Assembly: GCA_903860995.1 (NCBI GenBank)
Contig: CAIOSS010000042.1
Coordinates: 1 to 37,406, forward strand
Source: an uncultured delta proteobacterium
GTDB taxonomy: Bacteria > Myxococcota_A > Polyangia > Polyangiales > Ga0077539
Direction: 5' to 3'
DNA length: 37,406 nucleotides
Position numbers and translations under genes: made by a program. Shown piece after piece: positions 5,484 through 36,534 of the stretch (the stretch's first letter is position 1; each line of letters begins with the position of its first letter). The notes under the pieces were generated by a model. The model worked only from the letters and a program-made list of their open reading frames with translations. It searched no databases and had not been told where the DNA came from.

Positions 5484-5488
5484 GAGCT

Positions 5489-7620: not shown

Positions 7621-7676
7621 CGAGAGGGTCTCCGCTGAAGTAATCTGTTGCTTGTGAGAAAGGCTTAACGTTCCGC

Positions 7677-8120: not shown

Positions 8121-8138
8121 CGTCGGGTTCGCTCTTTC

Positions 8139-10969: not shown

Positions 10970-11332
10970 ATGAAGATCCTAATCGTCGATGACAGCAAGG
11001 CCATGAGGATGATCATCACCCGCTCCCTGCGTCAAGCCGAGCTGGGTGAACTGACGCTTTTCGAAGCGTCCAACGGCGCCGAGGCGCTGGCGTGCGTCGC
11101 GAGCGACCAGCCAGACCTTGTTCTCACCGACTGGAACATGCCGACGATGAACGGCCTCGAGCTGCTGCAGGCTCTCCAGGCTCAAGGAGCACCTCCCAAG
11201 GTGGGCGTCGTGACCTCGGAAGGCACCGTCGCGATCCGTCATGCGGCGAGCTCTGCCGGTGCTGCCTTCATCATCACCAAGCCATTCACGCCGGAAATCT
11301 TTCGAGCCGCGCTTTCGCCGGTGCTGCGATAG
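10970..11332 (+). CDS. Single-domain CheY-like response regulator (second copy)
   Basis: ATG at 10970 (MKILIVDDSKAMRMII...LVLTDWNMPTMNG...VTSE...TKPF), 120 aa. The track start at 10904 adds a non-receiver leader. Confidence 0.85.
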   Translation: MKILIVDDSKAMRMIITRSLRQAELGELTLFEASNGAEALACVASDQPDLVLTDWNMPTMNGLELLQALQAQGAPPKVGVVTSEGTVAIRHAASSAGAAFIITKPFTPEIFRAALSPVLR

Positions 11333-21700: not shown

Positions 21701-23226
21701 GTGCCGCCGCAAGGCACCAGGCCCGCCCCGCAGCTCACAGCGCACGCCCCGCGAGAGCACACCTCGCCCGCCGCGCAGGTCGCCCCGCAACGGCCGCAGT
21801 TCCCGCGGTCGGTTTCCAGGTCGCGACAGGTGCCGCCGCACGCCACGGTGCCCGCCGCGCAGGAGAGGGTGCAGCTCCCCCGCGCGCACACCTCGCCCGC
21901 CGCGCACGCGCGGCCGCAGGCCCCGCAATGGTTCACGTCGGCGTCGAGGTCGCGGCACCGGCCGCCGCAGTCCGAGAGGCCGGGCCCGCACGTCGTCGCG
22001 CACGCCCCCGCGGAGCACACCGTCCCCGCCGCGCACGCGTTGCCGCACGCCCCACAGTTCGCGTTGTCCGTCGAGAAGTCTCGGCACGCGCCGCGGCACG
22101 AGGCCGTCCCCGCGCCGCACGAGGCCGTGCACGCGCCGCCGGAGCACACGGTCCCCGCAGCGCACGCGTTCCCACACGCGCCGCAGTTCGCGTTGTCCGT
22201 GGCGAGTTCGCGGCACACGCCCGCGCAGGCCGTGAAGCCCGAGCTGCACGTCGCCTGGCACGTCCCCGCCGCGCAGAGCTGCCCGGGCGCGCAGGCGTTG
22301 CCGCACGCGCCGCAGTTCGCTGCGTCGTTGCGAACGTCGCGGCACCCACCCCCGCACGCCGCGAGGCCCGGGCCGCACGAGGGCACGCACGCCCCAGCCT
22401 CGCAGGCCTCGCCGGAGCCGCACACGTTCCCGCACGCCCCGCAGTTGCGCGCGTCGCTCGAGAGGTCCCGGCACGAGCCCGCGCAGGCCGTCGCCCCGGC
22501 ACCGCAGGTTGTCGCGCAGGCGCCCGCGGCACACACCTGCCCCGCCGCGCACGAGGTCCCGCAGGCGCCGCAATGGCGCGGGTCGGAGGCCAGTTCGGCG
22601 CAGGCCACCGCGCCCGATCCGGCGCAGGCCACCTGCCCCGCGGGGCACAACACGCGGCACGCGCCGCCCTCGCACGCGTAGCCCTCGGCGCAGGCGAGGC
22701 CGCAGGTCCCGCAGTTGCGGCGGTCCGCGGAGAGGTCTGCGCACGCGCGCGCCATGCCGCCGTCCATGGACGCCGCCACCGCGCACTCGCTTGTGCCGCC
22801 GCTGCACGTGAACGCGCACGCGCCCCGCGAGCACACCTGGTCGGACCCGCACCGCACCCCACAGGCCCCGCAGTTCGCGGGATCGGTGTCGAGCACCGCG
22901 CACCGCAGCGCGCCCGCCGCGCCGCACAAGCTCTCGCCCGCGGTGCATCCGGGCACGCACGCGCCGTTCTGGCATCCCTCGGTAGCCCCGCACGTCTGGC
23001 CGCAGGCCCCACAGTTGGCTCGGTCCCGCGACACGTCGGCGCACCTGCCGCCACAGCGCGCCAGGGGCGTGGGACAGCCCGTGCCCCCGTCGGCCGTAAT
23101 GCCGCCGCCGCCGCCGCCGTCGGTACTGCCCACCACAGAGCGCCCTACGCACCCCGCGACCGCCACCAGCATCACCAACACCACCCCAAGTGAGCGGCTC
23201 CACACCTCCAGCACGTTACGGATCAT
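18799..23226 (-). CDS. Giant Cys-rich repeat lipoprotein with C-terminal FGE/SUMF1-like domain
   Basis: 1475 aa. Signal peptide with lipobox LVAVAGC, 23 (N/H)CGxCG-centred repeats, and C-terminal FGE-type motifs (RLPTEAEWEYAARG, YPWGD, FDMAGNVSEW, LGFRCVRE). The start is uncertain (ATG 23226 or GTG 21 nt downstream). Confidence 0.85.
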   Translation of the reverse strand: MIRNVLEVWSRSLGVVLVMLVAVAGCVGRSVVGSTDGGGGGGITADGGTGCPTPLARCGGRCADVSRDRANCGACGQTCGATEGCQNGACVPGCTAGESLCGAAGALRCAVLDTDPANCGACGVRCGSDQVCSRGACAFTCSGGTSECAVAASMDGGMARACADLSADRRNCGTCGLACAEGYACEGGACRVLCPAGQVACAGSGAVACAELASDPRHCGACGTSCAAGQVCAAGACATTCGAGATACAGSCRDLSSDARNCGACGNVCGSGEACEAGACVPSCGPGLAACGGGCRDVRNDAANCGACGNACAPGQLCAAGTCQATCSSGFTACAGVCRELATDNANCGACGNACAAGTVCSGGACTASCGAGTASCRGACRDFSTDNANCGACGNACAAGTVCSAGACATTCGPGLSDCGGRCRDLDADVNHCGACGRACAAGEVCARGSCTLSCAAGTVACGGTCRDLETDRGNCGRCGATCAAGEVCSRGACAVSCGAGLVPCGGTCRDLNTDLNHCGVCGGPCAAGQVCSAGACATTCAAGTVDCGGICRELATDPGNCGACGNACPAGTACTRGTCAASCATGTVPCGGTCRDLTTDLNHCGACGTACAAGQVCSGGVCTTSCGAGTANCGGACRDLATDRLNCGACGTACASGEACVAGRCATSCPAGQSVCGTSCRDLDTDRANCGACGVTCAAGQVCSAGACAVSCGSGTTNCSGTCRDLASDLGHCGACGGACAAGQVCSAGTCTVSCGAGTTNCGGVCRDLQSDANHCGACGAGCSSGQLCSSGTCATTCGAGTTNCSGTCRDLSMDNGNCGACGRACAAGTVCSGGTCAVTCGAGTTNCSGACRDLGTDNANCGACGLVCDGGQACAAGRCMVTCGAGLSICAGACRDLATDRLNCGACGTVCPSGLACIGRACAISCPAGQTACGAACVTTATDPANCGGCGRACSPGQVCASGACACPAGTTVCGGACVTLGASCTSTGSGGCARSGTTVCVGGAVQCSATPRTSGSCTSPTDGVCSASGACTCAEGMTVCGGACVSTASNNANCGGCGRACLAEQVCASGACACPAGTTQCGAACVTLGVSCTSLGSGGCEQSGMTACVGGALQCSATPRTSGSCTSPRGGVCNASSACACLAGTTVCSGACVTTGSDATNCGACGVVCASGQSCVSGMCTSGGTGSLVQRSCAVEGTAGCGMVTFTGGTFTQGGAAPAIQASPVQTVTMGNFAIDAYEVTVARFRVFWAARSTTAAPAVLRASPIPYRNNAPLAWGAAAQAPLPLDTFTNWSATSPTVTEHPMNGVDFWLSQEFCVWDGGRLPTEAEWEYAARGIAVEGLTAGRVYPWGDTAPVGSSSVACDRAHFNSCAGADGRRTRRVGSFAATAGLFDMAGNVSEWTADNFGFYPSCRISSRNPFCNFRSQVPNGPVVYHGGSMREGAASLRAASREYNSPDSRLDYLGFRCVRETP
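19672..23076 (-). repeat. In-frame tandem repeat array (unit mostly 129 nt = 43 aa, 8 Cys per unit) inside the lipoprotein gene
   Basis: The array consists of consecutive units such as CGAGATACAGSCRDLSSDARNCGACGNVCGSGEACEAGACVPS. Sixteen successive units are 43 aa long. Two longer, near-identical insert modules (CTS-GSGGC...CSATPRTSGSCTSP) lie near the 3' end. Confidence 0.85.
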
Positions 23227-24802
23227 GGAACGGGAGCCTATTGCACTTCGAGACTACCTCGATCATCAATCTGAGCCCGTCGAGGTGAGGGCCCTCCCCT
23301 CGACCCGCGCGCGACGGTTCGTGGCAACATGCGCGCACGTGTTCGCCGTCACTTTCCTCGGTCATCAGGGTTGGCTCTTTCGCTCCGATCGCGCGTGCAT
23401 CGCGGTCGACCCGCTGCTGTTCGAGCACTTTGGCGCGCAGCATGCGCTCGAGTACCAGGTGTTCCCGCCGCGGCGGCTCGACCTCGCACGCTTCCCCGCG
23501 CTCGATGCGGTGGTGCTCACGCACGAACACGACGACCATTTCGACATTCCGTCCCTCGCCAGGCTGAGCCGCAAGATTCCCATCCATCTGTCCGCCCGCT
23601 CGTCGAGCGCCGCGCACCGGATCCTTCGCGAGATGGGGTTCCAGGTGGTGCCGCTCGAGCCTGGGGTGCCCGTCACCTTCGACGATCTGGAGGTCATCCC
23701 GCTGGCCGGAGATCACGTGAACGTCGACTGCGGCGACGAATGGGACACGCTGCCCCTGCTCGTGCGTGACACGGGCGGCGCCGGGAGCTTCTTCTCCATG
23801 GTCGACATCACACCGACGGAGCACCACCTCCACCTCGTCAAGGGCGTGCTGGCGAAGCCGGGGCTGGTCACCTGGACAAACAACGCCCTCGACTGGAGTC
23901 ACATGACCGACTTCGTGGACGAGATGAGCGGCAGCACGGAGGCGTGCGCGGCGCGGATGGGGGTCGGTCGCGAGCTCGTTCGCGCGGCGTGGGGGCGGCC
24001 CGCCGCGACGCTGCTGTGCGCGGGCGGGTTCTCGTTCTACGGCGAGCGGGCGTGGCTCAACCGGCGCGTGTTTCCCATCGACTGCGATCGCGCCTGCGCA
24101 TTGCTCGAGCGCGCCCATCCGCGCGAAAAGTTCGTCTCCACACTTCCTGGGCAGACGTTCTGGATGGAGGGCAATCGGCTCGTGCGCGTCGACGCGTCGA
24201 CCGACTTTCTCGCGACCGAGCCGCGCAACGTCTGGCCTTCGCGCGAGCCAGCCCACCTCGCCACGCTCCCGGATTTTGCACCCGCGAGCGGAGCACGCGC
24301 GCTCGGCCGCGGTGATCTCCCGCGCATCGAAAAAGGACTCCATGAGCTCGCCTGCGCGCTGGTGGGCGGTCCGCTTTTTCGATGCCTCTATTCAATGATG
24401 GCGGGCGAGTCCGAGGGGCGCCGGCCGACCTTTGCGTTTGCGCTCCGCGACGGGGCGCGACGGCACGTGTTCGAGTACGTGCCGTCCGCGTGCGTCTTCC
24501 GCCGCGTCGACGTCGACGATCCCGAGAGCGCCTATCTCCTGGGCCTGGAATGCTGGGCCTCGGACCTGCTCCAGGTGCTTCGGGGCGACATGGGTCCCAT
24601 GGCGCTGAGCTTCGGCCGCGCTCGCCTCTGGAACGCCGTTCCCGCTCTCGTCGCCGACGTGATCTTCGATGAGCTCTACCGTGTGAGCCATCCGCTCCGT
24701 CGACCGGCAGAGACCTTCCGCGCCTACGAGCGCCTCTGGAAGAGCGCCCCCACCGCGCGCGTGCGTGTCGCAGCGAAGAAGCGCACCCGCCGCACCTCGT
24801 AG
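23225..24802 (+). CDS. MBL-fold metallo-hydrolase with uncharacterised C-terminal half (possibly SCP2-like)
   Basis: HxHxDH motif LTHEHDDHFD after FAVTFLGHQGWLF...IAVDPLL. 525 aa from ATG 23225; alternative in-frame GTG at 23321. C-terminal ECWASDLLQVLRGDMGPMALSFGRARLW resembles an SCP2-type ending. Confidence 0.75.
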   Translation: MEREPIALRDYLDHQSEPVEVRALPSTRARRFVATCAHVFAVTFLGHQGWLFRSDRACIAVDPLLFEHFGAQHALEYQVFPPRRLDLARFPALDAVVLTHEHDDHFDIPSLARLSRKIPIHLSARSSSAAHRILREMGFQVVPLEPGVPVTFDDLEVIPLAGDHVNVDCGDEWDTLPLLVRDTGGAGSFFSMVDITPTEHHLHLVKGVLAKPGLVTWTNNALDWSHMTDFVDEMSGSTEACAARMGVGRELVRAAWGRPAATLLCAGGFSFYGERAWLNRRVFPIDCDRACALLERAHPREKFVSTLPGQTFWMEGNRLVRVDASTDFLATEPRNVWPSREPAHLATLPDFAPASGARALGRGDLPRIEKGLHELACALVGGPLFRCLYSMMAGESEGRRPTFAFALRDGARRHVFEYVPSACVFRRVDVDDPESAYLLGLECWASDLLQVLRGDMGPMALSFGRARLWNAVPALVADVIFDELYRVSHPLRRPAETFRAYERLWKSAPTARVRVAAKKRTRRTS

Positions 24803-25220: not shown

Positions 25221-26246
25221 TCAGCGCGGGCGCCCGCGCGCCCAGGCCGACGGGCTCTCGCCCACCTGACGACGAAACGCCCGCGTCCACGCGCTCTGGT
25301 CGGAGAAGCCCACCGCGAGGGCGATGTCGGCCAGCGAGCACCGGCCTTCGCGCAGCAGGCGCTGCGACTCGTCGGCGCGGAAGGCGTCGACCACCGCGCG
25401 CCACGTCGTGCCGCGCGCCAGCAGGCGTCGGTGGAGCGTGCGCTCGCTCGTCCCGAGGCTGCGCGCCATCGCCGCAGCGGAGACGTCGCCCTGGCGCAGC
25501 AGGTCGCGGAGGCGGGCGCGCACGGCGAGCTCGAAGGGGTCGCTCGCGGCGCCGAGGCCCATCGACGACGCGATGAGCCCGAGGGTGTACCGGAGCTGCG
25601 GGTCGGCGGTGCGCAGCGGGCGCGCGAGGGCCGCGGAGGGAAACCAGAGCGACCCCACCGCGGCGCCACATGCCACCGGGGCGCCGAACACCCGCGCGAG
25701 CTCGCCGGGCGCAGGGTCGGACCGCCGGACGGCGACGCGCACGCCGGGAAGCGCGTCGTCGCCGCCGAGGCTGTGACGGAGGTTCTTCAGGGTGACCGCG
25801 AGCGTGAACTCCTCGATGACCCAGGGGCGCTCGGCGAGGGAGACGTGCACCGCGAGGCGTGCCCCGTCGGGGTCGACCGTGAGGGTGAGCGCGGGCTCGG
25901 CGGTGATGCCGCGGAAGTGCGCCGTGAGGCCGTGCAGCGAGCCGCCGAGGGTGTCGGCGCTGACGGCGAGGTAGTCGATCACCCCGAAGGCGCCGAAGGG
26001 CGTGGCGCGGCCCACCTCGGCGGGGAGCGTCGGGCGGGGAAACTGCGTGAGCGCCTGGTCCCAGGCGAGGAGGATGGCGCGGGTGGGCCAGAGGTCGCCG
26101 GGCGCCGGGTCGCCGGCGGGGAGCGTCGCGCGCACGGCGCGGACGTCGACCCCGACCGCGGCCATGCCCGAGAGAATCGCCAGGACGGTCTGCGCCGGGG
26201 TGTCCACCATCGTCGCCGCCGCGCAGAGGAGCACAAGACCCGCCAT
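25221..26246 (-). CDS. AraC/XylS-family transcriptional regulator (AraC-binding-like N-domain + HTH_18)
   Basis: C-terminal double HTH (AAAMARSLGTSERTLHRRL ... LADIALAVGFSDQSAWTRAFRRQVGESPSAW). ATG at 26246 chosen (342 aa); the track ORF extends to 26525 across the divergent promoter region. Confidence 0.85.
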   Translation of the reverse strand: MAGLVLLCAAATMVDTPAQTVLAILSGMAAVGVDVRAVRATLPAGDPAPGDLWPTRAILLAWDQALTQFPRPTLPAEVGRATPFGAFGVIDYLAVSADTLGGSLHGLTAHFRGITAEPALTLTVDPDGARLAVHVSLAERPWVIEEFTLAVTLKNLRHSLGGDDALPGVRVAVRRSDPAPGELARVFGAPVACGAAVGSLWFPSAALARPLRTADPQLRYTLGLIASSMGLGAASDPFELAVRARLRDLLRQGDVSAAAMARSLGTSERTLHRRLLARGTTWRAVVDAFRADESQRLLREGRCSLADIALAVGFSDQSAWTRAFRRQVGESPSAWARGRPR

Positions 26247-26337
26247 GGCGCGAACTGCCAACGCGTTGGCCGATCCGGTCAGGACGCGGCGACGGCCGAC
26301 GCGCACGTTCGGGGACGAGAGAAGGAGACCTCCCACG

Positions 26338-27759
26338 ATGCCACGACCCACCCCGTTTTCGACCGACCACACCGCGTTCGCGTCTACCGCCCGCGCGGGC
26401 TTCGCCTCGCAGGAAGCCCGCGTGGAGGGGGAGATCCCGCCGTGGCTCCGCGGCGACCTCGTGCGTACCGCCCCGGCGCTCTTCGCCGAGGGCCGCTGGG
26501 CCGCGGCGCACTGGTTCGACGCCATCGGGATGCTCTACCGCTTCCACGTCGCCTCGCCGACGTCCGTCACCTGGTCGCAGCGCCTGCTCGAGTGCGACGC
26601 GGCCCGCGCGGCGCAGCGCGGCGAGATGCCGATGTCGTCCTTCGCGACGCCCAACACCCGCGGCGCCCTCGATCGCGCCCTGCATCCCGTGCCCGCGCGC
26701 TCGGACAACACCAACGTCAACGTGCTGAAGCTCGGGCCCGACTGGGTCGCGATGACCGAGACCGAGACCCAGTACGTCATCGACCCGGCGTCGCTCTCCA
26801 CCCGCGGGCGCGTGCGCTACGACGACGCGCTCGGCGGCGACCTCGCGATGATCGCGCACCCGCACCTCGACGTGGCCCGCCGCCGCGTGGTGAACGTCGG
26901 CACGCGCCTCGGCGCGTCCGCGGAGCTGGTGGTCTTCGAGCACGCGCCCGACGAGCGGCGGCGCGTCGAGGTCGGCCGCTGGAAGACCGGGGAGTTCCCG
27001 TACGTGCACGCCTTCGCGCTGACGCCCTCGAAGACGGTGCTGATCGATCATCCGCTGCGCGCGCGGCCGGCCTCGCTGCTGTGGTCCAACCGCGGGTACA
27101 TCGAGCACTTCGAGTGGCAGGGGCGCACGCCGACGCGGCTCGTCGTGATCGACCGCCGGGGCGGCCCCACGCGGGTGCTCGAGACCGACCCGATGTTCGT
27201 CTTCCACACCGTCCACGCCTTCGACGACGGCGACGCCCTCGTCATGGACGTGATCGCCTACCCCGACGCCTCGGTGATCGACGCCCTGCGCATCGACCGC
27301 CTGCGCGACGCCAACATTACCGCGCAGGCGTCGCTGGTGCGTCTGCGGCTCGACCTCGCGACGGGCGCCGTGCGCCGCGAGGTACTGCTCGCCGACGGGT
27401 TCGAGTTTCCGGCCGTGAGCTACGGCCAGGTGAACGGGCAGCGGCACCGCCGGGTGTGGGGCGCCCGGCTGGTCCGCGACGCCGACGGCCTGCGATCGAC
27501 CCTGGTGCGCCTCGACCTCGAGCGCGGCGACCTCGCGACCTTCACCGACGGCGACGTGGTCTACGGCGAGCCCGTGTTCGTCGCCCGCCCCGGGGCCACC
27601 GCGGAGGACGACGGGGTGATCCTCGCGGTGGGCTCGTCGCCGTCGCAGGGGCGGGCGCACCTCGCCGTGCTGCGCGCCGACGACCTCACCCGCGTGGCGA
27701 CCGCCCACGTCGACGTGCCGCTGCCGCTGGGGTTTCACGGCAGCTTCGCGCGGGCGTGA
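26338..27759 (+). CDS. Carotenoid/stilbene-cleaving oxygenase (RPE65/CCD family)
   Basis: ATG at 26338 with GAAGGAG 11-17 nt upstream. 473 aa. Family-typical His-containing strands (AAHWFD, MIAHPHLD, YVHAFAL, FVFHTVHAFDD, LGFHGSF). Confidence 0.9.
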   Translation: MPRPTPFSTDHTAFASTARAGFASQEARVEGEIPPWLRGDLVRTAPALFAEGRWAAAHWFDAIGMLYRFHVASPTSVTWSQRLLECDAARAAQRGEMPMSSFATPNTRGALDRALHPVPARSDNTNVNVLKLGPDWVAMTETETQYVIDPASLSTRGRVRYDDALGGDLAMIAHPHLDVARRRVVNVGTRLGASAELVVFEHAPDERRRVEVGRWKTGEFPYVHAFALTPSKTVLIDHPLRARPASLLWSNRGYIEHFEWQGRTPTRLVVIDRRGGPTRVLETDPMFVFHTVHAFDDGDALVMDVIAYPDASVIDALRIDRLRDANITAQASLVRLRLDLATGAVRREVLLADGFEFPAVSYGQVNGQRHRRVWGARLVRDADGLRSTLVRLDLERGDLATFTDGDVVYGEPVFVARPGATAEDDGVILAVGSSPSQGRAHLAVLRADDLTRVATAHVDVPLPLGFHGSFARA

Positions 27760-27780
27760 ACCGTCCCGCGACGGCGCCCG

Positions 27781-28040
27781 GAAGTTGCGCCGGTCGCCGT
27801 CGAAGAAGCCCGCCGCGCGCACGCCGACGCGGCCAAACACCATCGCTGCGGGCGCCGCGAACTGCGACGAGAACGGCATGAACCGATACACCAGCCGCTC
27901 GGCCCCGGCAGTGGTCACGACCGCCGCGCCGAGGTGATCGGGCCGCGCGGGAAACACCACCACCATCGCCTCGTCGGCGGACGTCGTGCCGGCGAGCGTG
28001 AGGGCGGCGTCGCGACCCGCGAGGACGTCGAGGCACCGGA
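27781..28040 (-). pseudogene. Coding remnant on the minus strand (no possible stop codon before it runs antisense into the oxygenase gene)
   Basis: Hand tallies over 60-nt windows (27781-27840, 27841-27900, 27961-28020) put 90-95% G/C on the third position of the minus frame of ORF 24724..28443 (...MVVVFPARPDHLGAAVVTTAGAERLVYRFMPFSSQFAAPAAMVFGRVGVRAAGFFDG...). That frame has no stop until 24724. Boundaries are approximate. Confidence 0.3.
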
Positions 28041-28050
28041 CGACCTGCCG

Positions 28051-28525
28051 GTGGACCTCGACCACTTCCAGGGGCTCCGTCGGAACCGCGTCGTCAACGA
28101 CCCGGTCGTGCTGTTCGAACTCTTCCGTCGCGGGACGTACGGGGTACCCATGTCCGACGGCGCGTGCGCGCGCCTGCGGCTGCACGACGACGAGAACGGC
28201 CAGCTTCTCGTGACCGCGGCCGGATACACCGCCATGGTGGTCGTCTGGGCGTCGACGCACCGACGCGGGCAGCCCGCGGAGTTCACGATCAACGACCCGC
28301 AGTACCGCGTGTTCGACGCGTTTCCCGCGGGCGACCGCGGCGTGCTGATGTTCCTCGTGGGCGACCGCCTTGGCAGCCGGTACCGTCTCACCCGGGATGG
28401 CACCAGCCTCGCGGTGACCGCGCCGAACAGCGTTGCCGGGCAACGCCGTCGTGCAGATGCACCCGAACCGTCGGACGTGCCTCGCCGAGGCCGCGGAGTT
28501 TCACGCCGTGGGCATCGCGCCGTGA
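28051..28525 (+). pseudogene. Frameshifted small gene (unknown function)
   Basis: Third-position GC is ~90-95% in the plus frame of ORF 27934..28698 at 28081-28320 (...QLLVTAAGYTAMVVVWASTHRRGQPAEFTINDPQYRVFDAFPAGDRGVLMFLVGDRLGSRYRLTRDGTSLAV). At ~28430 it moves to the next plus frame (LPGNAVVQMHPNRRTCLAEAAEFHAVGIAP, TGA 28523-28525). The possible start is GTG 28051. Confidence 0.4.
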
Positions 28526-28698
28526 CGGTCCATCCCCCGCGCGCTCGTCGTGATCCGCGCAGTCGTGCTCCATGGGCTCGTCCTCGCCGACCTCGCGACC
28601 GCGCACGCACGCCACGCAGCACGTCTCCGCCGGAGCCTCACCGTGAGAGGAGAGCCCCTCCGCGTGCGCCCGACGAGCCCCGGGGGAGCCTCGCATAA

Positions 28699-28814
28699 GC
28701 GTTAACCGTTGATCGATCAGGTTGTAGGGGCACCCCGTGTGGGTTCCCTCGTCGCCAACGTCGGGCATCCACAAGGGGTGCCCCTACAAAAACCACGGGA
28801 CGAACGGTTAACGC
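28699..28814. repeat. 116-bp compound inverted repeat (MITE-like or giant hairpin)
   Basis: Outer arms gcgttaaccgtt (28699-28710) and aacggttaacgc (28803-28814) match 12/12. Inner arms ttgtaggggcaccccgtgtgg (28722-28742) and ccacaaggggtgcccctacaa (28769-28789) match 20/21. The central loop is 26 nt. Confidence 0.85.
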
Positions 28815-28860
28815 CCATGGGACGAGGGGTGGCGGCGGTGGCGGCGGCGGGTGGCGGCGG

Positions 28861-30165
28861 CTATGGGCTGAAGGACTCGCTCCTCGCGGGGAACGGGTCC
28901 GTGGCATTCCCCGCAGCGCCGCCGACGGTCGCGAGCACCGCCTCGTGCACGACGTGTGGGCGCAGCCAGTCGGGCCAGCCGATCGCCACGACCTTGTCGT
29001 CCGGGCGCGGCGCGCCGCGCAGGCGCCCGGGTGTCACCAGCACCGAGCCCGCGAAATCTGACAGGTGTCGGGCGTAGTCCACCGCGTATCCGATCGCCTC
29101 ATCGAATCCCCGGTGCAGGTACGACGGGTCCTTGCTCAGCTTGACCTCGATCACCACGGCGCGCGGCTCTCTTCCTGGGCCGTCGCCGAGGACGACGACG
29201 TCGGGGCGAGACGATGCCTCGCCGCCAAAGTAGTGGGCGATCGCCTCCTGACGACGGCCCGAGGCGAGCGGCGACTGGTTGTAGAACATCCGGAGTCGAC
29301 GCCCGTCGTCGCACTCGAAGACGACGATCTCCTGGCGGCGCGGGTCGACCACCGCATGACGGATCTGCCAGCGGCCGGGCGCCTCGCGGGTGAGTCGGTG
29401 CTCGATGGCGTGTGCGAGCGTCAGGGCCACCGCCAGTTCGAACCGCTGCCAGGGCTCCATCGGCCACAGCGCTCCCTTCGCGACACATCGCGCGACGGAC
29501 CGCGGATCGTTCGAGTCGAGGGTCTCGCGGAGCGCGTCGAAGAGTGTCGCGGCGAGGGCGAATGCCCGCTGGGGTCGGCCCCGCAGTGCGTGCGGCTCCA
29601 CGTCGTCGAAGGCCACCACCGCGACCCGTCGCAGCGCGGTTCGCTCGAGCGTGCTCCGAAGCGCGCGATCCCACGCGATGGCGTGCGTGGCCCAGCCCGG
29701 AGGCGCTCTCCCCCACCCGCGGAGCAGCGAGGCGAGCACCGCGCACAGCCGCACCACGACAGCGCGAACGACCACCTCCGCGGGCTGGTCGTACCGACGA
29801 ACGCGCACCCGCGACACGAGCGTCTCGCGGTCTCCGCGCATCCTGGCCGCGAGCGTGCGAGGGACGTCGAGCCGCCCCAGCAGCCGCCCGCGATGGGCCT
29901 CCGGCGTCACCTCCGTGCGCCCGCGCAGTGCGCGGCAGAGGTCGGGCAGCGCCCGCAGGGCGAACTCTGCGATCTCGTTGCCGTGCGCGGCCACGAGGGT
30001 CGACGCGCGAAAGGTCGCGAACGACGCGCCCGGACCGAGCACGCGGCGCACCAGCTGCTCGGCTGCGGCCGGATCGATGGCGCCCTGCATCGCGCTCGGC
30101 AGGAGGTACGCGGGGAAGAGCGCCTCGAAGCGGGCCTCCCAGGGGTCGTCGAGCGGCGCGCTCAC
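28861..30165 (-). CDS. McrC-like PD-(D/E)xK nuclease partner (434 aa)
   Basis: The GTG start overlaps the stop of the upstream McrB-like gene (GTGA). C-terminal nuclease core RPDVVVLGDGPGREPRAVVIEVKLS (D322 ... E340-x-K342). The N-terminal ~300 aa are unassigned. Confidence 0.7.
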   Translation of the reverse strand: MSAPLDDPWEARFEALFPAYLLPSAMQGAIDPAAAEQLVRRVLGPGASFATFRASTLVAAHGNEIAEFALRALPDLCRALRGRTEVTPEAHRGRLLGRLDVPRTLAARMRGDRETLVSRVRVRRYDQPAEVVVRAVVVRLCAVLASLLRGWGRAPPGWATHAIAWDRALRSTLERTALRRVAVVAFDDVEPHALRGRPQRAFALAATLFDALRETLDSNDPRSVARCVAKGALWPMEPWQRFELAVALTLAHAIEHRLTREAPGRWQIRHAVVDPRRQEIVVFECDDGRRLRMFYNQSPLASGRRQEAIAHYFGGEASSRPDVVVLGDGPGREPRAVVIEVKLSKDPSYLHRGFDEAIGYAVDYARHLSDFAGSVLVTPGRLRGAPRPDDKVVAIGWPDWLRPHVVHEAVLATVGGAAGNATDPFPARSESFSP

Positions 30166-32333
30166 GCCGTCGGGCCGAACATGTCGATGAGACGCGCGCG
30201 GAGCATGGCGACCGCGGCGGGCGACGCGGCCCCATCGATCGATCGGTGCAGCGTCGCGGTGACGCGAGCGAGCGCCTCGGCGTCGAGCCCATCGAGCTGT
30301 GGCAGGAGGAAGAACGCAATGGCCTCGGCGAGCGCGTCGGCGCCGCCCTGTCGGCGGCGCAGGTACCGCACGACGTCGAGCGCGAGCGCGGGTCCGACGG
30401 GCCGATCGCGCAGGAGACCATCGCGGGAAAAGAGCGACTGCACGCGGCGCATCAGCGTCTCGTCGATGGGCGGATCGAAGCCCGGGCGAGAGGCGTGCGC
30501 GGCGATGAGCGACTGAAACGCAGTGTCGTCGGGCGGGTCGATGGTCACCACGGCGAAGCGGCGGAGCAGCGCGTAGGAGAGGCGAAAGAGCGACGACTTG
30601 TCCCAGGTGTTCATCGTGGCGATGACGCGGAAGCTGGGCGCGACGAGGTGTGTGTCCGTGGGCTCGAACCCGAGCGTGATGGGCCTGCCGTCGTTGCCGA
30701 AGAAGGGGGTCTCGGCGCCGCGTCCGGCGAGGACGGTGAGCAGCTCACCAAACGCGCGGTCGACGTCGGCGCGGTTGAGCTCGTCGATGAGGAGCCAGTG
30801 GTAGCTCGCGAGCGCGCGCAGAAACACCCCGGGCCGAAACTGCAGCGTGTTGTCTTGCTGCAACGCATAGCCTCCGACGGTCTCGAAGGTCGACCAGTCG
30901 GCGGAGGCGGTGGTCGTGAGCAGCCCGTGGCAATAGCCCTCCGCCTTCGCGGCGGCCGCGATGGCGCTCGCGAGCTCCGTCTTGCCCGTGCCCGGAGGAC
31001 CGATGAGCAACAGGTGCTTTCCGGTCGAGAGCGCCGCGGCGATCTGCGTGAGCAGCATCGGCGGGAGCACCAGATCCCTCAACTGCGTGGCGATGCGGCT
31101 GGGATCGAGCGCGAGGCGCTCCGCGCTCCACCCGACGGGCTCGCCGGACGGCGTGGGTGCGACGGGTGGTTCGCCGACGCCGGGGTCCGGATTCACGACG
31201 CCCGGTTGCACGTCGACCCCGTGGGCGCGGAGCACCTCGCGGCCGAGGGTCGTGGCGCGGTCGACGTCGTCCTCGCGCTCCGTGAGACCCAGGGAGATAA
31301 GCCAGTTGCGTCGAAAGCTCGGCTGGGCGTTCGTTCGCCAGGTGGTACCGAGCCTGGTGTTCAGCGCGGGCAGAGCGCGGGCAGACGTGCAGCCTTCGGG
31401 TTGTGCAGAAAGCTCCAGCGTGTCGAGCATGCCGCGGTAACGGGCGTCGAGGCGCTCGAAGAGCACGCGAGGCTCGGGAGCCGCCAGATACGAGCGTCCC
31501 GCCTCGGAGATCGTCAATCGCCCGTCGTCGCGGTCCGTCAATCCCAGGCTGAGGAACTGGCGTACGTAACCGTGGATCGAGGTCTTCCCATGCGCACCGT
31601 ATTGCTCGCGGAGCATCGTGCGGAGGTCCTCCACGGTTCGCTCGGCGTCCGCGATCCAGCGGAGGAGTGTGTCGTGCGTGTTCTTGTACTCGCGCATTCC
31701 GCCGGGCAGCGGCCAGAGACCGTCGTGGCGCTCGTCGTCGGCCGCCGCGACGTCACTGGGGACGAGACCCTTCGCGACCGTTTCCCCCGGCGTGACGGTC
31801 TCCTCCGTGGGCAGTGCGACCGCGTCGGCGATCACCCCCGGCAGGGCGTCGATCGTGCCTCTCCCCTCTCCTCTCGCGATCTTTTCCACGAGCAGCGCGC
31901 GCAGCGTCGGCCATGCCGTGGCGGCCACGGGGAAGTTCGTCCCCTGCGCATTGCGGATGATGCTGACCTCGCGAAGCGCCGCGTCGGCGACGAGCGTGGC
32001 GCGAGGAATCTCGCTCGTGAAGATCGCGAGGTAGCGAAACTCCACCCGCCATTTGACCAGTTGGTAGGGCTGCAAGGCGGTGTCCGTGCGCGCGTCGTCG
32101 TCGCGCTCGAAGGGCGGCGCGGTCAGCACCCCGACGGCGTGGATGCCCGCGCTGCGGCCCGAGGACCACAAGAGCACGATGTCGCCGGGGCGCATCCAGG
32201 CGCGCCGCTGCGAGGCGTTCCACCAGTCCGTGTCGCCCGGCGACACCCCCGGCAGATGGGCCGCCAGATCGAACTGCCCGGGGTTGGCCTGGAAGATCCA
32301 CGCGCGCGCTTTCCCTGACACGTCGTCGTTCAT
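30162..32333 (-). CDS. EVE-domain / unassigned sensor region / McrB-family AAA+ GTPase fusion (723 aa)
   Basis: N-terminal PUA-like EVE pattern (AWIFQANPGQFDL, RPGDIVLLWSSG, IIRNAQGTNFPV). Walker A GPPGTGKT, Walker B LLIDELN, McrB signature MNTWDKS (NxxD). Confidence 0.85.
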   Translation of the reverse strand: MNDDVSGKARAWIFQANPGQFDLAAHLPGVSPGDTDWWNASQRRAWMRPGDIVLLWSSGRSAGIHAVGVLTAPPFERDDDARTDTALQPYQLVKWRVEFRYLAIFTSEIPRATLVADAALREVSIIRNAQGTNFPVAATAWPTLRALLVEKIARGEGRGTIDALPGVIADAVALPTEETVTPGETVAKGLVPSDVAAADDERHDGLWPLPGGMREYKNTHDTLLRWIADAERTVEDLRTMLREQYGAHGKTSIHGYVRQFLSLGLTDRDDGRLTISEAGRSYLAAPEPRVLFERLDARYRGMLDTLELSAQPEGCTSARALPALNTRLGTTWRTNAQPSFRRNWLISLGLTEREDDVDRATTLGREVLRAHGVDVQPGVVNPDPGVGEPPVAPTPSGEPVGWSAERLALDPSRIATQLRDLVLPPMLLTQIAAALSTGKHLLLIGPPGTGKTELASAIAAAAKAEGYCHGLLTTTASADWSTFETVGGYALQQDNTLQFRPGVFLRALASYHWLLIDELNRADVDRAFGELLTVLAGRGAETPFFGNDGRPITLGFEPTDTHLVAPSFRVIATMNTWDKSSLFRLSYALLRRFAVVTIDPPDDTAFQSLIAAHASRPGFDPPIDETLMRRVQSLFSRDGLLRDRPVGPALALDVVRYLRRRQGGADALAEAIAFFLLPQLDGLDAEALARVTATLHRSIDGAASPAAVAMLRARLIDMFGPTA

Positions 32334-32438
32334 CGGCGCCCATCATCGGTCCGCGCCCGTCGCGCTGTCGACCTGGAAGCCCGTCGCGCGCACCGTCCCC
32401 CTCGCGCTGTCGCTCCGGAGCTCAGGTACGCTCGCGGG

Positions 32439-33206
32439 ATGGCCACTCCTCGCGCGAAGAAGCAGCCCGTCATCCCCAGGTCGAAGCCCGCCGCCGCGCC
32501 CGCGAAGCGGAAGCTGCCCGCCGCGCTCGAGCGGCGCGCGAGGGCGCTGCACGACGCGGCGCAGGCCCGACTCGTCGAGCAGGGCCGCGAGGCCATCGCG
32601 CTCATCCGTGCCCGCCGCGAGGCTATCGCCGACGACTACTTCGACGTGGGCCACGCGCTCATCACCCTGAAGAACACCGCCGTCGCGCTGGCCCTCGGCT
32701 ACGACGACGTCGCGACCATGCTCCGCGCCGAGCTCGACCTCTCCGTCGACACCGCCCACAAGCTTATCGAGCTCGCGACGCGCGTCGACCGCTCGCTCCT
32801 CCGCGAACTCCAGCAGGAGCGCGCCGCGGCCATCCTCGCGCTGGTCGACGCCACTCCCGCGGACGACACGGTCGAAGACCTCCTCCGCGCCCCCTTCGCC
32901 CTTCCCGACCGCAGCGGAGTCCTCGATCTCCGCACCGCCCCGATCGCCGCGATCAAGTCCGCCGCCCGCGCGATCCGGCAGCTGCACGCCCCCGCGGCGA
33001 AGCGCTCGGAGGGCTTCACCACCACGCCCGCCGAGCGCAAGGCGTTCGCCGCGCTCGTCGCCCCCGTCACGAAGCGCGCGTCGCTCCGCGGCGTGGCCAC
33101 CTTCAAGCTCGTCGCGTCACGCGGTGAGCACGGCCCGCTCGTGGAGTCCCGCATCCCGCTGCGCGACTTCGAGCGCGTCACGGCCCTCCTCCACCAGCGC
33201 CGCTGA
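32439..33206 (+). CDS. Hypothetical basic-tailed, HTH-like protein (255 aa), divergent from the McrB-like gene
   Basis: ATG at 32439, very high third-position GC. Lys/Arg/Pro-rich tail (MATPRAKKQPVIPRSKPAAAPAKRKLP) and a helix-turn-helix-looking segment (LGYDDVATMLRAELDLSVDTAHKLIELA). No family recognised. Confidence 0.7.
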   Translation: MATPRAKKQPVIPRSKPAAAPAKRKLPAALERRARALHDAAQARLVEQGREAIALIRARREAIADDYFDVGHALITLKNTAVALALGYDDVATMLRAELDLSVDTAHKLIELATRVDRSLLRELQQERAAAILALVDATPADDTVEDLLRAPFALPDRSGVLDLRTAPIAAIKSAARAIRQLHAPAAKRSEGFTTTPAERKAFAALVAPVTKRASLRGVATFKLVASRGEHGPLVESRIPLRDFERVTALLHQRR

Positions 33207-33219
33207 CTTGCCGCGCACT

Positions 33220-33281
33220 GGGTACGACCGCCGTACCCGGGAGTACGACGGTGGTACTCGACGGAAGGCGGGAGCCCCGCC
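33220..33281. terminator. Three consecutive GC-rich hairpins between convergent genes (putative bidirectional terminators)
   Basis: gggtacg-accgc-cgtaccc (33220-33238), gagtac-gacggtg-gtactc (33241-33259) and ggcggg-agc-cccgcc (33267-33281). No U-tract. Confidence 0.4.
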
Positions 33282-33284
33282 CCG

Positions 33285-33881
33285 TCACCACGCCCAGAGG
33301 GTCGCCAGCGCGAGCTCGATCGCGTCGAAGGGCTCCGCGCGCACGACCGCATCGCCGCTCGCGCTCAACACCAGCAGCCACCCGTCGGCGGTGCGCCGGA
33401 ACACCTCGATGCCCTGCGCTTCAGGGTCGACCATCCAGGCGTGCGCGGCGCCGTGGCGGAAGTACATCGGCATCTTCTTGAAGCGGTCGTGGCGCTGCGT
33501 GGACGGCGACCTCACCTCGCACACCCAGTCGGGCACGACGTCGATCGTCGACGCGGCGGGCATCGTCGGCAGGCGCTCGCGGTGCCACCCGGCCAGGTCG
33601 GGAACCACCAGATCGGGCCGCGCGCCGAGGCGCAGTTCGGGCTCCGGGAGGATGATCCAGCCGCCCGGTCCGCCGCGGCCCCAGCGGAACGGGGGCGAGA
33701 GCGACTGGTCGACCACCGAGGCCGCGCTCGCGTGACGTGGCGCCGACCGGGGCAGCATGGAGAGCTCGCCGTCGATGATCTCGGCGACGACGTTCTCGGG
33801 GGCGCGGCGCCACGCATCGACGACCTCGGCGGGGAGGTTGGGGTACTCCGGGTCGATGACTCCCGCGGGGTCGGACGCCAT
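33285..33881 (-). CDS. Uma2-family (DUF820) putative endonuclease
   Basis: ATG at 33881 (MASDPAGVIDPEYPNLP), 198 aa. Family-typical VVPDWVCEVRSPSTQRHDRFKKMPMYFRHGAAHAWMVDPEAQGIEVF. The 592-aa track ORF upstream of this Met is composite. Confidence 0.8.
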   Translation of the reverse strand: MASDPAGVIDPEYPNLPAEVVDAWRRAPENVVAEIIDGELSMLPRSAPRHASAASVVDQSLSPPFRWGRGGPGGWIILPEPELRLGARPDLVVPDLAGWHRERLPTMPAASTIDVVPDWVCEVRSPSTQRHDRFKKMPMYFRHGAAHAWMVDPEAQGIEVFRRTADGWLLVLSASGDAVVRAEPFDAIELALATLWAW

Positions 33882-33948
33882 GGCCCACGGTATCACGCGC
33901 CCCGCGCCGACCGATCGGGCCCAGCGGGGCGCCGCGCCCGCCGTTGGT

Positions 33949-34420
33949 TCAGCCTTCCGCGAAGACGGCGTCGAGCATCGCGGCGCCGAGCGCGCGGTCG
34001 GCCCAGCGCTCGATGAGATCAGCTGCTCCATCACCGACGGGTGCGGCATGGCCAGAATGCCCGCCTGCGTCGCCCGGCGCGCGAGGTCCACCGCGCGAGG
34101 ACCGTGCGGACCCTGCATCACCCACGCGGCGAACACCGCCATCTCCGGTGTCCCCCGGGCGAGGATGGCCTCGGCCTCGGTCGGTCCGAGGAGCAGCCAC
34201 GATGACCCATGAGCTCCCGTCGCGGAGCACGAGGTCCGGCAATGACCTCCACGGAAAACGCGGCCCGAAGCGGTTGCGGGAGACCTCCTTCGGGGTCTCA
34301 GGGCCGACCGACAGACTCGTTGCCGAGCAGACCGAGGAGCACCCGGTACGGCAGCGGAAGCTCCGGGTGCCACTCGAAGCGCGCCCGCTCGAACCACTGC
34401 ACCCAGTAGGGGAGAGGCGA
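33949..34420 (-). pseudogene. Decayed gene needing at least two frameshifts
   Basis: Third-position GC peaks in three different minus frames. At 34321-34380 the frame reads YWVQWFERARFEWHPELPLPYRVLLGLLGNE. At 34021-34080 it reads LGPTEAEAILARGTPEMAVFAAWVMQGPHGPRAVDLARRATQAGILAMPHPSV. At 33961-34020 it reads GAADLIERWADRALGAAMLDAVFAEG, with the stop at 33949. Confidence 0.5.
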
Positions 34421-34471
34421 ACCAACGCGGCACCCTCGCTGCCACGGATCCGCTGCAGTGACCGAAACACC
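34408..34471. repeat. Copy B of the ~64-nt dispersed repeat (copy A at 13756-13820)
   Basis: See copy A. Here the repeat sits exactly at the 5' truncation point of the IS66-type transposase fragment. Confidence 0.75.
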
Positions 34472-35174
34472 TATGATCCGTTGTACCCCTACCCGCGAGC
34501 ATTGGCAGAAGCTCACAGGCCGCCGCCTTGGCGACTCGGCCCGCAAGCTCCTGATCCACTTCCGGGGCGTGCTCGTGGTCGACCGCTGGCGCGCCTACGC
34601 GGGCGTGACGGTGGCGGCCTGGCAGTACTGCTGGGCGCACCTGAAGCGCGATTGGGAGAAGTTCCGGCTGCGCGGCGGGGAGGACGCCGAGCTCGCCGAA
34701 CGCCTCGCCCGCGAGACCGACCGTCTCTTCACCCGGTGGCACTGGGTGAAGCAGGGACGGCGCGACCGGGCGTGGTTGCAACGCTCGGTGGCGAAGCTCA
34801 AGCGCACCTTCCGACGGCTGCTCGAAGCGGGCGTCGAGACGGCGTCGGAGAAGACCCGTGGGACGTGCGGCGAACTGCTGGCGACCTTCGAGCGGATGTG
34901 GACCTTCGTCGACCACGAGGGCGTGCCGCCGACGAACCACTTCGCCGAGCAGCAGATCCGACACGGGGTCATCTGGAGGAAGACGAGCGTCGGCAGCGAC
35001 AGCGAACGGGGCTGCCTGTTCGCGGGGATAATCCTGACCGTCGTGGCCACTTGCCGTCAGCATGGTCGTGACGTGTTTGCATTCCTCGTCGAGGCCGTGA
35101 CAACGAAGCTACGCGGCCTCGCAGCTCCGTCGCTTGTGCCGCTCGAGCTGGCCACCAGCGCCGCTACGGCCTGA
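34458..35174 (+). pseudogene. IS66-family TnpC transposase, C-terminal ~238 codons only
   Basis: GVLVVDRWRAYA...QYCWAHLKRDW...PPTNHFAEQQIRHGVIWRKTSVGSDSERG matches my recollection of the DDE_Tnp_IS66 C-terminal half. The first catalytic Asp region and zinc-finger part are missing. Downstream ...cgttac at 35299-35304 fits an IS66-type GTAA terminus. Confidence 0.7.
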
Positions 35175-35313: not shown

Positions 35314-36534
35314 CAGGGCGGCTGCACCAAAATCACTTGATTCCCAGCGAAAGTACATGTTCGAGATACTCGATACTTCGCCCCGCCTTGGCGCGCTTCG
35401 CGGCGACTCCCCGGATCCTCTTCCCTCGTCGACAGGTATCGTCTCGGACGAGGAGAGTCAGCGCCATCCCACGGATCGCGGCAAGGTTCGCCGCGGCGTT
35501 GGCCTCGTGAACGGCGCATCGGTCCTCTCCCATCTGCACGTCGAGCGTCCAGTGCAGGCCGTTCTCGATGCCCCAGTGTTCGCGGGCGCTCTTGGCCAGT
35601 CGCTTGGCCGACGGCGCCAGACTCGACAGGAAGACGTGCAGCTCGCACGAGGTCTTGTCCCTCACCGTGCGAGTGCGCTCGACGAACGTGATGCTCCGGA
35701 GCGACGGCCACTCGTCGCCCGGAAGCACACAGACCTTCGACGGGATCGACCATGCCTCGCGCGTCTCGATCCGCCCGTGGCTCTCGTTCTCCGCCCGGCT
35801 GTGGCGCACGGTCACCCCGGCGAACCCGTCGGCGCGCGCGGTCGTGAAGTAGCCCATGGCCACCTCGTAGGCCGCGCCGCGATTGGCCTTCAGGTGGAGC
35901 AGATAGTCCGCCTCCCGCGCCACGATCGCCTGCGCCGTCTCGCGGCAGCAGTGCGCCGCGTCGGCGGTCACCAACGCGCCCTTGAGTTCCAGCACCGCGA
36001 GCAGATCGCGCATCCCCGCGATCTCCTCGGGCGCGCCCTCGACGGCGTGCTGGGCCAACAGCAGGCGCTGCTCGCACGCCCACACGTTGACCAGGTGGAG
36101 CTTCGATCCGAGCGCGGCCCGAGCCAGCGCGCCCCGCAGGGTCTTGCCGTCGAAGGCGACGACCTGCCCGGCGAGGCACTCCGCGAGGCTCTTGACCCAC
36201 GACTGCATGCACGCCCCGAACGCCTTCGCGTTCAGCGACTGGAACGTCCGGTAGAAGGTGCTCTCCGAGGGCACGCCGTTGGGCATGTCGAGGAACGTCG
36301 CGAACCATTCCTTCCGATCCTCCGCGAAGTCCTCGATCTCTTCCCAACCCTCGGCCCCGCCGATCACCGCGACCACCGCCATCAGGACGATCGTCAACAG
36401 CGGGTGGTCGGTGCGGCCGACGACCCGAGGGTCTTCAAGAGACTCGAAGTGCTGCCTGATCTTGCTGGAGCTCCGCATCGGCTCCGACTACGGGAAACCC
36501 GCAAAAACTCAAGCGTTTTGATGCAGCCGCCCTG
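35314..36534 (-). mobile_element. ISAs1-family insertion sequence (1221 bp) with imperfect terminal inverted repeats
   Basis: Left IR cagggcggctgcaccaaaatcacttgatt (35314-35342) versus the reverse complement of 36506-36534, cagggcggctgcatcaaaacgcttgagtt. 18 of the first 19 nt are identical. The transposase stop lies inside the left IR. Confidence 0.8.
35333..36478 (-). CDS. ISAs1-family (H-repeat-associated) transposase
   Basis: 381 aa, intact. N-terminal HFESLEDPRVVGRTDHPLLTIVLMAVVAVIGGAEGWEEIEDFAEDRKEWF...NGVPSESTFYRTF and C-terminal HWGIENGLHWTLDVQMGED. Confidence 0.9.
   Translation of the reverse strand: MRSSSKIRQHFESLEDPRVVGRTDHPLLTIVLMAVVAVIGGAEGWEEIEDFAEDRKEWFATFLDMPNGVPSESTFYRTFQSLNAKAFGACMQSWVKSLAECLAGQVVAFDGKTLRGALARAALGSKLHLVNVWACEQRLLLAQHAVEGAPEEIAGMRDLLAVLELKGALVTADAAHCCRETAQAIVAREADYLLHLKANRGAAYEVAMGYFTTARADGFAGVTVRHSRAENESHGRIETREAWSIPSKVCVLPGDEWPSLRSITFVERTRTVRDKTSCELHVFLSSLAPSAKRLAKSAREHWGIENGLHWTLDVQMGEDRCAVHEANAAANLAAIRGMALTLLVRDDTCRRGKRIRGVAAKRAKAGRSIEYLEHVLSLGIK

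Follow-up and report, generated by a model that had tools for sequence, protein, structure and literature searches.

The closest described counterparts of the system reported here are the McrBC enzyme of Escherichia coli K-12 (EcoKMcrBC; 6HZ4, 6UT6), that of Thermococcus gammatolerans (6UT3-6UT8) and the EVE-McrB fusions described by Bell et al. (BMC Biol 2020, PMC7641849; eLife 2024, PMC11090510). EVE-McrB, which occurs in close to 300 genera, is the commonest EVE fusion in defence systems, and 'additional domains [are] often present' (PMC7641849). A locus of this well-known kind was found in 37,406 nucleotides (nt) of DNA from an uncultured delta proteobacterium of the Myxococcota (GenBank assembly GCA_903860995.1, contig CAIOSS010000042.1, positions 1-37406), a stretch that is called the window below. 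Two adjacent genes on its minus strand form an intact two-gene McrBC-type system, in which an EVE modified-base reader is fused to the motor and is accompanied by a very divergent McrC nuclease.

The locus shares with E. coli McrBC the organisation as a two-gene operon with the motor gene upstream and a start/stop overlap, an AAA+ core with Walker A and B motifs, an MNxxD[RK]S signature and an arginine pair, a partner composed of a finger domain together with a C-terminal D...(D/E)xK nuclease, and the lack of need for a cognate methyltransferase. It differs from the E. coli enzyme in having an EVE domain as reader instead of DUF3578/ADAM, in the tandem winged-helix-like module and two disordered linkers that separate reader and motor, and in an AAA+ core sharing just 28% identity. 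The partner exceeds E. coli McrC (EcMcrC) by 86 amino acids (aa), has an extra helical region at its N-terminus, is too divergent for PF10117 and carries ExK where the E. coli protein has DxK. Similarly to the locus, T. gammatolerans McrBC joins its McrB motor to an EVE-like (YTH) reader and has a long McrC (TgMcrC, 458 aa) with extra material before the finger, and a TgMcrC chain, 6ut7_G, was the best Foldseek match of the partner. In contrast, the N-terminal scaffold of TgMcrC is described as barrel-like (PMC7680126), whereas that of the partner is predicted to be helical, and the archaeal TgMcrB has no winged-helix-like modules.

The fusions of Bell et al. likewise have the EVE domain N-terminal to an NxxD-type McrB GTPase and a DUF2357-PD-(D/E)xK McrC downstream, though they are reported to be most abundant in Firmicutes and Bacteroidetes, while the clade described here belongs to the Myxococcota and has an McrC that is missed by the Pfam models used there as seeds. 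The non-canonical LlaI and BsuMI systems also combine an McrB-type motor with an McrC-type nuclease, and in them DNA may in part be bound by a module that is not a base-flipping reader. They are, however, site-specific, are encoded by three genes and leave DNA binding to a separate R1 protein, whereas here there are two genes and the N-terminal modules are all fused to the motor; assignment as a three-gene LlaI-type system was rejected on this gene count. A literature search gave no description of this Myxococcota clade, and the accessions of the named relatives had no match in two census supplement files, the only ones searched. Particular to the clade are the McrC missed by curated profiles, the constant tandem winged-helix-like module and the helical N-terminus of about 80 residues in the partner.

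The mcrB-like gene (30162-32333, minus strand) has an ATG start and encodes a 723-aa protein, in which the EVE domain is followed by a linker, the two winged-helix-like modules, a second linker and an McrB-type AAA+ NTPase with a C-terminal lid. The mcrC-like gene (28861-30165, minus strand) has a GTG start and encodes the 434-aa partner, consisting of an N-terminal helical extension, a DUF2357-like finger domain and a PD-(D/E)xK nuclease domain. The stop codon of the former and the start codon of the latter share the GTGA at 30162-30165, as read directly from the sequence, and this 4-nt overlap is predicted to couple the translation of the two genes. The overlap had been reported in a first-pass annotation of the window, made from the letters alone, and all motifs named in that annotation translate at the residue numbers given for both open reading frames (ORFs). 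The GC content by codon position was of the coding type in both ORFs (0.70/0.52/0.88 for the 723-aa and 0.77/0.53/0.88 for the 434-aa protein, in DNA of approximately 70% GC), and both are full length compared to their homologues.

The C-terminal part of the 723-aa protein is an McrB-type AAA+ core (residues 417-625; 30459-31085, minus strand), as identified by BLASTP and by a phmmer search of PDB sequences against E. coli McrB (EcMcrB). Pfam AAA_5 matched residues 440-593 (E 1.7e-19), BLASTP against EcMcrB gave E 6e-20 at 28% identity, and the best single-domain matches among PDB sequences were EcMcrB (E 3e-13, residues 417-625) and T. gammatolerans McrB (E 3.7e-10). The region around residues 440-600, in which Walker motifs and an McrB signature had first been pointed out, hence lies within a match to McrB. 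The top NCBIfam family for the protein was McrB itself (NF008457, E 3.7e-11, residues 417-619), with the runner-up family being six orders of magnitude weaker.

All the motor motifs aligned in register with EcMcrB. Walker A (GPPGTGKT, residues 445-452; 30978-31001, minus strand) corresponds to GPPGVGKT, Walker B (LLIDELN, residues 514-520; 30774-30794, minus strand) to IIDEIN, and the invariant arginine pair R591-R592 in YALLRRF, placed after the consensus loop like the trans-acting finger/sensor pair of McrB, to YALRRRF. The pre-AAA loop LRDLVLP (residues 418-424) aligned with LNDLFIP, which in EcMcrB is the guanine-reading loop (PMC7680126). The signature MNTWDKS (residues 574-580; 30594-30614, minus strand) matched MNTADRS of EcMcrB, the loop with N333 and D336, column for column; it is of the NxxD type (N575 and D578) and not of the NxD or NxxxD types that are also known for McrB (PMC11090510). 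The motif residues of the motor, including N575, W577 and D578, were invariant in 44 homologues.

At the other end of the protein, the EVE pattern that had been noticed in the first-pass annotation corresponds to an EVE (PUA-like) domain, a predicted modified-base reader (residues 11-144; 31902-32303, minus strand), which matched Pfam PF01878 with E 4.1e-8 and 33.8 bits (cut-off 23) over profile positions 2-142 of 145. The motifs of this region were located at residues 11-23 (AWIFQANPGQFDL), 48-59 (RPGDIVLLWSSG) and 125-136 (IIRNAQGTNFPV). In an AlphaFold2 model of the 723-aa protein, built with 44 homologues and with a mean predicted local distance difference test (pLDDT) score of 86, the region adopts a beta-rich fold with pLDDT mostly above 85, and EVE matches in relatives reached Pfam E-values down to 2.5e-12.

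The approximately 240 residues following the EVE domain had been described as unassigned, and no Pfam family was indeed assigned to residues ~145-439. In the model, however, this stretch resolves into four parts. A disordered linker (residues ~175-198; 31740-31811, minus strand; pLDDT < 50) is followed by module 1 (residues 205-287; 31473-31721, minus strand; pLDDT ~90), which opens with an invariant WPLPGG-x-R-x-YK motif, by module 2 (residues 288-375; 31209-31472, minus strand), which contains an invariant NQxxFRRNWLxSxG motif, and by a second, Pro/Gly-rich disordered linker (residues ~379-394; 31152-31199, minus strand; pLDDT < 50). Both modules have a predicted topology of three helices followed by a beta-hairpin, hold invariant columns across the family alignment and share homology, as an hhalign comparison of the two showed (probability 88%, E 2.9e-6). 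Neither gave a significant match in Pfam or PDB sequence searches, in which the winged-helix proteins DtxR (E 0.17) and Sso10a (E 0.32) were the only, sub-threshold, matches in the PDB; the term winged helix is therefore a prediction based on the modelled topology and the internal duplication.

Comparison of the relatives suggests that this middle region is not an added sensor. The combination of an EVE domain and both modules was found in the 723-aa protein and in relatives at 58-99% identity, while other relatives, e.g. an 813-aa protein of Myxococcus stipitatus, carry both modules behind an N-terminal domain without known family. Further forms include one of approximately 620 aa in Sorangium and a minimal one of 437 aa that keeps only module 2, which is the constant N-terminal neighbour of the motor throughout the family. 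Since the N-terminus varies and the middle modules are kept, the middle region is best seen as a constant chassis of the clade, with the reader domain as the swapped part. The 'extra sensor region' of the first-pass annotation, regarded there as an unusual multi-part sensor, thus becomes two disordered linkers and a duplicated module that is constant in the family, and extra domains are in any case common in EVE-McrB proteins (PMC7641849). Most motor relatives (approximately 770-830 aa; in Myxococcus, Corallococcus, Sorangium and Polyangiaceae, e.g. locus L001, 6001-8442) have a conserved N-terminal region of about 200-300 aa in place of the EVE domain. Pfam returned nothing for this region, a candidate specificity domain with CxWxGGS and WW motifs in its consensus.

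The 434-aa partner is a divergent McrC, as judged from its fold, transitive Pfam matches, profile-profile comparison and conserved catalytic residues. An AlphaFold2 model (12 homologues, mean pLDDT 84) showed a strand at residues 83-92, a helix at 101-109, a strand at 115-124, five helices and then an alpha/beta nuclease domain, which is the published layout of the McrC finger with its beta stalk, loop-helix-loop tip and helical bundle (PMC7680126). The finger domain accordingly covers residues 83-237 (29455-29919, minus strand; stalk 83-92/115-124), and its tip motif RGRLLGRLDVPRT (residues 92-104; 29854-29892, minus strand) aligns with RGRID of McrC. The nuclease domain covers residues 238-400 (28966-29454, minus strand) and contains E243 (in RFEL), D322 (in RPD; 29200-29202) and E340-V-K342 (29140-29148). 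The four best Foldseek matches of the model in the PDB were all McrC chains, namely 6ut7_G (E 1.4e-4), 6hz4_M (E 2.5e-4), 6ut6_G (E 2.8e-3) and 6ut5_G (E 0.11), the last of which is not significant alone; the alignments covered 237-426 columns (385-426 for the three significant matches).

An exhaustive profile search collected 743 representative clusters (50% identity) of the partner family at E <= 0.001, almost all of them approximately 405-435 aa long. Among 52 diverse relatives, weak Pfam matches were obtained to DUF2357 (23 of 52), McrBC PF10117 (10 of 52) and PDDEXK_7 (4 of 52), which are the McrC models of the published census (PMC11090510). These matches are collinear with the McrC architecture, with DUF2357 falling on the finger and PDDEXK_7 on the nuclease domain, and one relative exceeded the curated cut-off for DUF2357. 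When the family profile was compared with a true McrC profile by hhalign, partner residues 83-424 aligned with McrC residues 60-355 (E 1.3e-4, 274 columns), placing RGxxRGRxD on the RGRID of McrC, RPD322 on TD244 and ExK340-342 on D257-A-K259. Against the single EcMcrC sequence the comparison was not significant (probability 1%), and the catalytic motif was aligned nonetheless. D322, E/D340 and K342 were each conserved in 52/52 family members and E243 in 50/52, while at the tip G97 was invariant and T104 was present in 51/52.

The proposal that D322 and E340-V-K342 form a PD-(D/E)xK core is thus borne out, since these residues align with the catalytic D244, D257 and K259 of McrC. On two other points the initial description of the partner needs revision. 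It had been called clearly longer than classical McrC, but its 434 aa lie within the known range, which is marked by the 348 aa of EcMcrC and the 458 aa of TgMcrC (PMC7680126). Its N-terminal region had been considered unrecognisable, but the N-terminal half is the McrC finger/DUF2357 domain, and an E. coli counterpart is lacking only for the initial ~80 residues, which are helical. These make up a family-specific extension (residues 1-82; 29920-30165, minus strand), which was modelled as helices between residues 8 and 79, lies outside the McrC-aligned region and includes a nearly invariant W9.

In each of the 14 related loci whose upstream sequence was long enough, an mcrB-like gene immediately preceded the mcrC-like gene in the same orientation, and in 9 of these the two genes shared a 4-nt [A/G]TGA overlap. 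Apart from this strict pairing, the neighbourhoods of related pairs were unlike one another. A 5.3-kb block (28849-34148) comprising a Uma2 gene, a gene for a 255-aa protein and the mcrB-like and mcrC-like genes was 98.7% identical by blastn to two metagenome contigs, with flanks differing on both sides, and the three near-identical copies part from each other approximately 12 bp past the mcrC-like stop codon. A copy with 89.5% identity had only 28916-32387 in common, i.e. the two-gene unit. The pair hence behaves as a mobile defence module and not as a housekeeping gene pair, and conserved housekeeping synteny, which would have spoken against the original interpretation, was not found. The last 113 codons of an mcrC-like gene (96% protein and 97% DNA identity) were also present at positions 1-365 of a contig binned as an alphaproteobacterial metagenome-assembled genome, the match again ending at 28849, which points to mis-binning or else to a recent transfer of the module.

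In one reference-genome scan the partner family was confined to Myxococcota (Sorangium, Polyangiaceae, Polyangiales and Bradymonadia), and it was essentially absent from plasmids, with one weak match only. The first-pass statement that the window holds no methyltransferase is correct for DNA methyltransferases: Pfam scans of the window ORFs found none, and the sole methyltransferase was the chemotaxis protein CheR (3589-4476, minus strand). No DNA methyltransferase adjoined the pair in the related loci either.

Taken together, profile, fold and context support the core of the original interpretation, i.e. an McrBC-like type IV module with an EVE reader and a coupled PD-(D/E)xK partner. We consider it probable, at roughly 85%, that the two genes specify a modification-dependent (type IV) restriction enzyme of the McrBC type, from a divergent Myxococcota clade, and that this enzyme works by the canonical McrBC mechanism. 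The EVE domain of the 723-aa subunit would recognise a modified base in incoming DNA, and the tandem winged-helix-like modules would contact DNA in a general manner or provide the link between reader and motor. The AAA+ domain would bind nucleotide, probably GTP, and hexamerise, with the McrC-like subunit presumably being made in step with the motor by means of the GTGA overlap. The beta-stalk finger of this subunit may then enter the pore of the predicted hexamer and stimulate hydrolysis, and after translocation the C-terminal PD-(D/E)xK site (E243, D322, E340 and K342) would cut the DNA. Phage defence and DNA cleavage are accordingly predicted functions, deduced from sequence; the neighbouring Uma2 gene, with its match to a PADLOC candidate defence model, was counted in favour of a role in defence.

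Several observations weigh against this reading. The score of the 723-aa protein against NF008457 was 42.4 bits, far below the equivalog cut-off of 637, which makes it a distant relative of McrB and not an orthologue, and non-canonical McrB homologues are able to use ATP (bioRxiv 10.64898/2026.08.31.748284). The EVE domain alone had no match among PDB sequences, i.e. it is without a close solved relative. The partner itself had no match in Pfam (no family at E <= 1, with PF10117, PF09823 and PF04411 not passed), NCBIfam, PADLOC or PDB sequences, nor did its family profile match the PDB, and its link to McrC runs only through profile-profile comparison, fold and transitive matches. The statistics of that link are moderate, with Foldseek E-values of about 1e-4, an hhalign probability of 53% and global template modelling (TM) scores to McrC of only 0.2-0.3, though low global scores are expected for an elongated two-domain protein. 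Finally, GTP hydrolysis is stimulated by K157 in EcMcrC and by the equivalent R263 in TgMcrC (PMC7680126); the family column aligned with this residue is basic (R/K) in 42/52 members, and the 434-aa protein has Pro198 at this position, with R197 and R200 around it. The lack of recognition of either protein by PADLOC carries no weight in this respect: the control E. coli K-12 McrC was also without a model match, and negatives from PADLOC are therefore uninformative on McrBC-type systems. EcMcrB matched only generic 'REase_II' AAA models (PADLOC-DB 2.0).

The fold of the motor also has to be counted among the contrary observations. In the Foldseek search of the whole 723-aa model, which is dominated by the AAA+ domain, NorQ (E 2e-11), EcMcrB (E 1.9e-10) and CbbQ (E 9e-10) all had a probability of 1.00, and the modelled motor thus resembles the MoxR-class proteins NorQ and CbbQ as well as McrB by fold alone. 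Since the fold does not separate the two classes, the assignment to McrB rests on the sequence signatures and the partner. The 723-aa protein could on these grounds be a MoxR/AAA_5-type remodelling ATPase with the partner as an unrelated housekeeping accessory, all the more as NorQ and CbbQ score at or above McrB and 'MoxR-like ATPase' is among the database names of relatives. There is nevertheless next to no chance of this being the case: MoxR-class ATPases share the AAA_5-type motor fold, but they have no NxxD signature, are housekeeping chaperones and work with VWA-domain partners, not nucleases, whereas the MNTWDKS signature is McrB-specific and sits in a residue-for-residue alignment with EcMcrB, and McrB is the best NCBIfam family by the six orders of magnitude mentioned above. 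The genomic contexts are moreover variable, and the partner, which contains no VWA domain, combines an McrC-like fold with nuclease residues that are invariant. A MoxR-VWA chaperone pair was rejected on the lack of a consistent VWA match by Pfam in the partner and its 52 relatives, one of which showed VWA_CoxE at E 0.11.

A stronger, though still unlikely, alternative retains the McrBC-type motor-nuclease and has it choose its target independently of a modified DNA base, with the winged-helix-like modules reading DNA sequence or structure in the manner of the R1 protein of LlaI/BsuMI, or with the EVE domain reading modified RNA. Most relatives are devoid of an EVE domain but retain the winged-helix-like modules together with this type of partner, and McrBC homologues that are both site-specific and modification-independent are known; what speaks against modification-independent reading is that EVE-McrB is the commonest EVE defence architecture and is taken as a modified-DNA reader (PMC7641849). 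Binding of modified RNA is possible for EVE-superfamily domains (PMC7641849; PMC11090510), but the signature is of the NxxD type, where the RNA-linked CoCoNuT clade has NxD, neither coiled coils nor HEPN partners were found, and the partner nuclease is an intact PD-(D/E)xK enzyme. Identity with the CoCoNuT/NxD branch was ruled out on the same signature and nuclease, together with the absence of long coiled-coil helices from the AlphaFold2 model of the 723-aa protein. It is very improbable, too, that the module is a remnant, inactive or in decay, within DNA that insertion sequences (IS) are reshaping. The intact ISAs1 element and IS66 fragment less than 3 kb away, the differing flanks of near-identical copies and the presence of Pro198 instead of the conserved basic residue in the finger's helical bundle would fit such a remnant. 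However, both ORFs have kept their full length, the nucleotide-binding and nuclease residues are all intact, the coding signature is strong, and the 97-99% identity of the block across three or more different contexts points to a working unit that was recently transferred.

Within the preferred reading, that of a modification-dependent McrBC enzyme, it is conceivable, if rather doubtful, that the Myxococcota clade constitutes a distinct McrBC branch, in which the tandem winged-helix-like module forms a second, obligatory layer of DNA recognition or coupling. Two things would then be required for cleavage, a modified base and contact by the winged-helix-like module, where the helical N-terminus of the partner would dock, and the base could be read by the EVE domain or, in most relatives, by the N-terminal domain of about 200-300 aa. 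Such a branch, if real, would be unnamed by current annotation resources, given that the partner has no curated Pfam or NCBIfam match, and would possess one or more reader domains of a new type.

Irrespective of this, a large clade (743 partner clusters and several hundred motor homologues) that is labelled 'AAA family ATPase', 'MoxR-like ATPase' or 'hypothetical protein' in databases can have its annotation changed to that of McrBC type IV restriction systems. As a consequence of this under-annotation, inventories of myxobacterial defence may be missing such systems, and the phages of myxobacteria are little studied. The clade also amounts to a set of natural exchanges of the specificity domain on a chassis of winged-helix-like modules and motor that stays constant, a set that could serve for studying the coupling of McrB motors to different readers, while general knowledge of McrBC systems is unchanged by this locus.

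Upstream of the pair and divergent from the mcrB-like gene lies the gene for the 255-aa protein (32439-33206, plus strand), which had no match in Pfam, NCBIfam or PADLOC. It is followed by the gene for the Uma2-family putative endonuclease (33288-34100, minus strand), which matched the PADLOC candidate defence model PDC-S03 with E 4e-15. Both genes accompany the pair in the 98.7%-identical copies and not in the 89%-identical one. The description of the surroundings as a decayed, IS-rich island was partly correct: one IS66-family transposase fragment, N-terminally truncated (34410-35174, plus strand), and, beside it, one intact ISAs1-family element (35314-36534) adjoin the module, the latter with 19-nt inverted repeats (95% complementary) around a 384-aa transposase (35333-36487, minus strand; NCBIfam E 1.9e-103). 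The IS elements are nevertheless confined to 34.4-36.5 kb, and the rest of the window consists of chemotaxis, signalling and metabolic genes.

On the other side, approximately 40 nt beyond the mcrC-like stop codon and just outside the 28849 block boundary, a nested near-perfect palindrome occupies 28691-28822, with arms at 28722-28748 and 28763-28789 inside an outer pair at 28691-28710 and 28803-28822. It occurs once in the window, has a folding energy as RNA of -92.9 kcal/mol (z -6.8) and lacks a T-run, and it may represent a hairpin with a terminating or stabilising role or, alternatively, an insertion resembling a miniature inverted-repeat transposable element that marks the breakpoint. Scans for tRNA, Rfam families and terminators returned nothing relevant. 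The approximately 1.1 kb between a gene for an RPE65-type carotenoid oxygenase (25975-27759) and the McrBC block (27760-28848) contains no convincing gene or family match, is missing from the near-identical contigs and may be remnant or junction DNA. Further away, 18995-24802 (plus strand) includes a 1228-aa protein without a match in Pfam, NCBIfam or PADLOC, in DNA of up to 78% GC, directly followed, with no gap, by a 706-aa protein of metallo-beta-lactamase fold. A complete chemotaxis-type signalling cluster at 3110-11332, with a GC content of approximately 64-65% that is below that of the rest of the window, encodes CheX, CheR, CheB, a response regulator, a globin-coupled sensor in the form of a protoglobin fused to a methyl-accepting chemotaxis protein, CheA-CheW and another response regulator.

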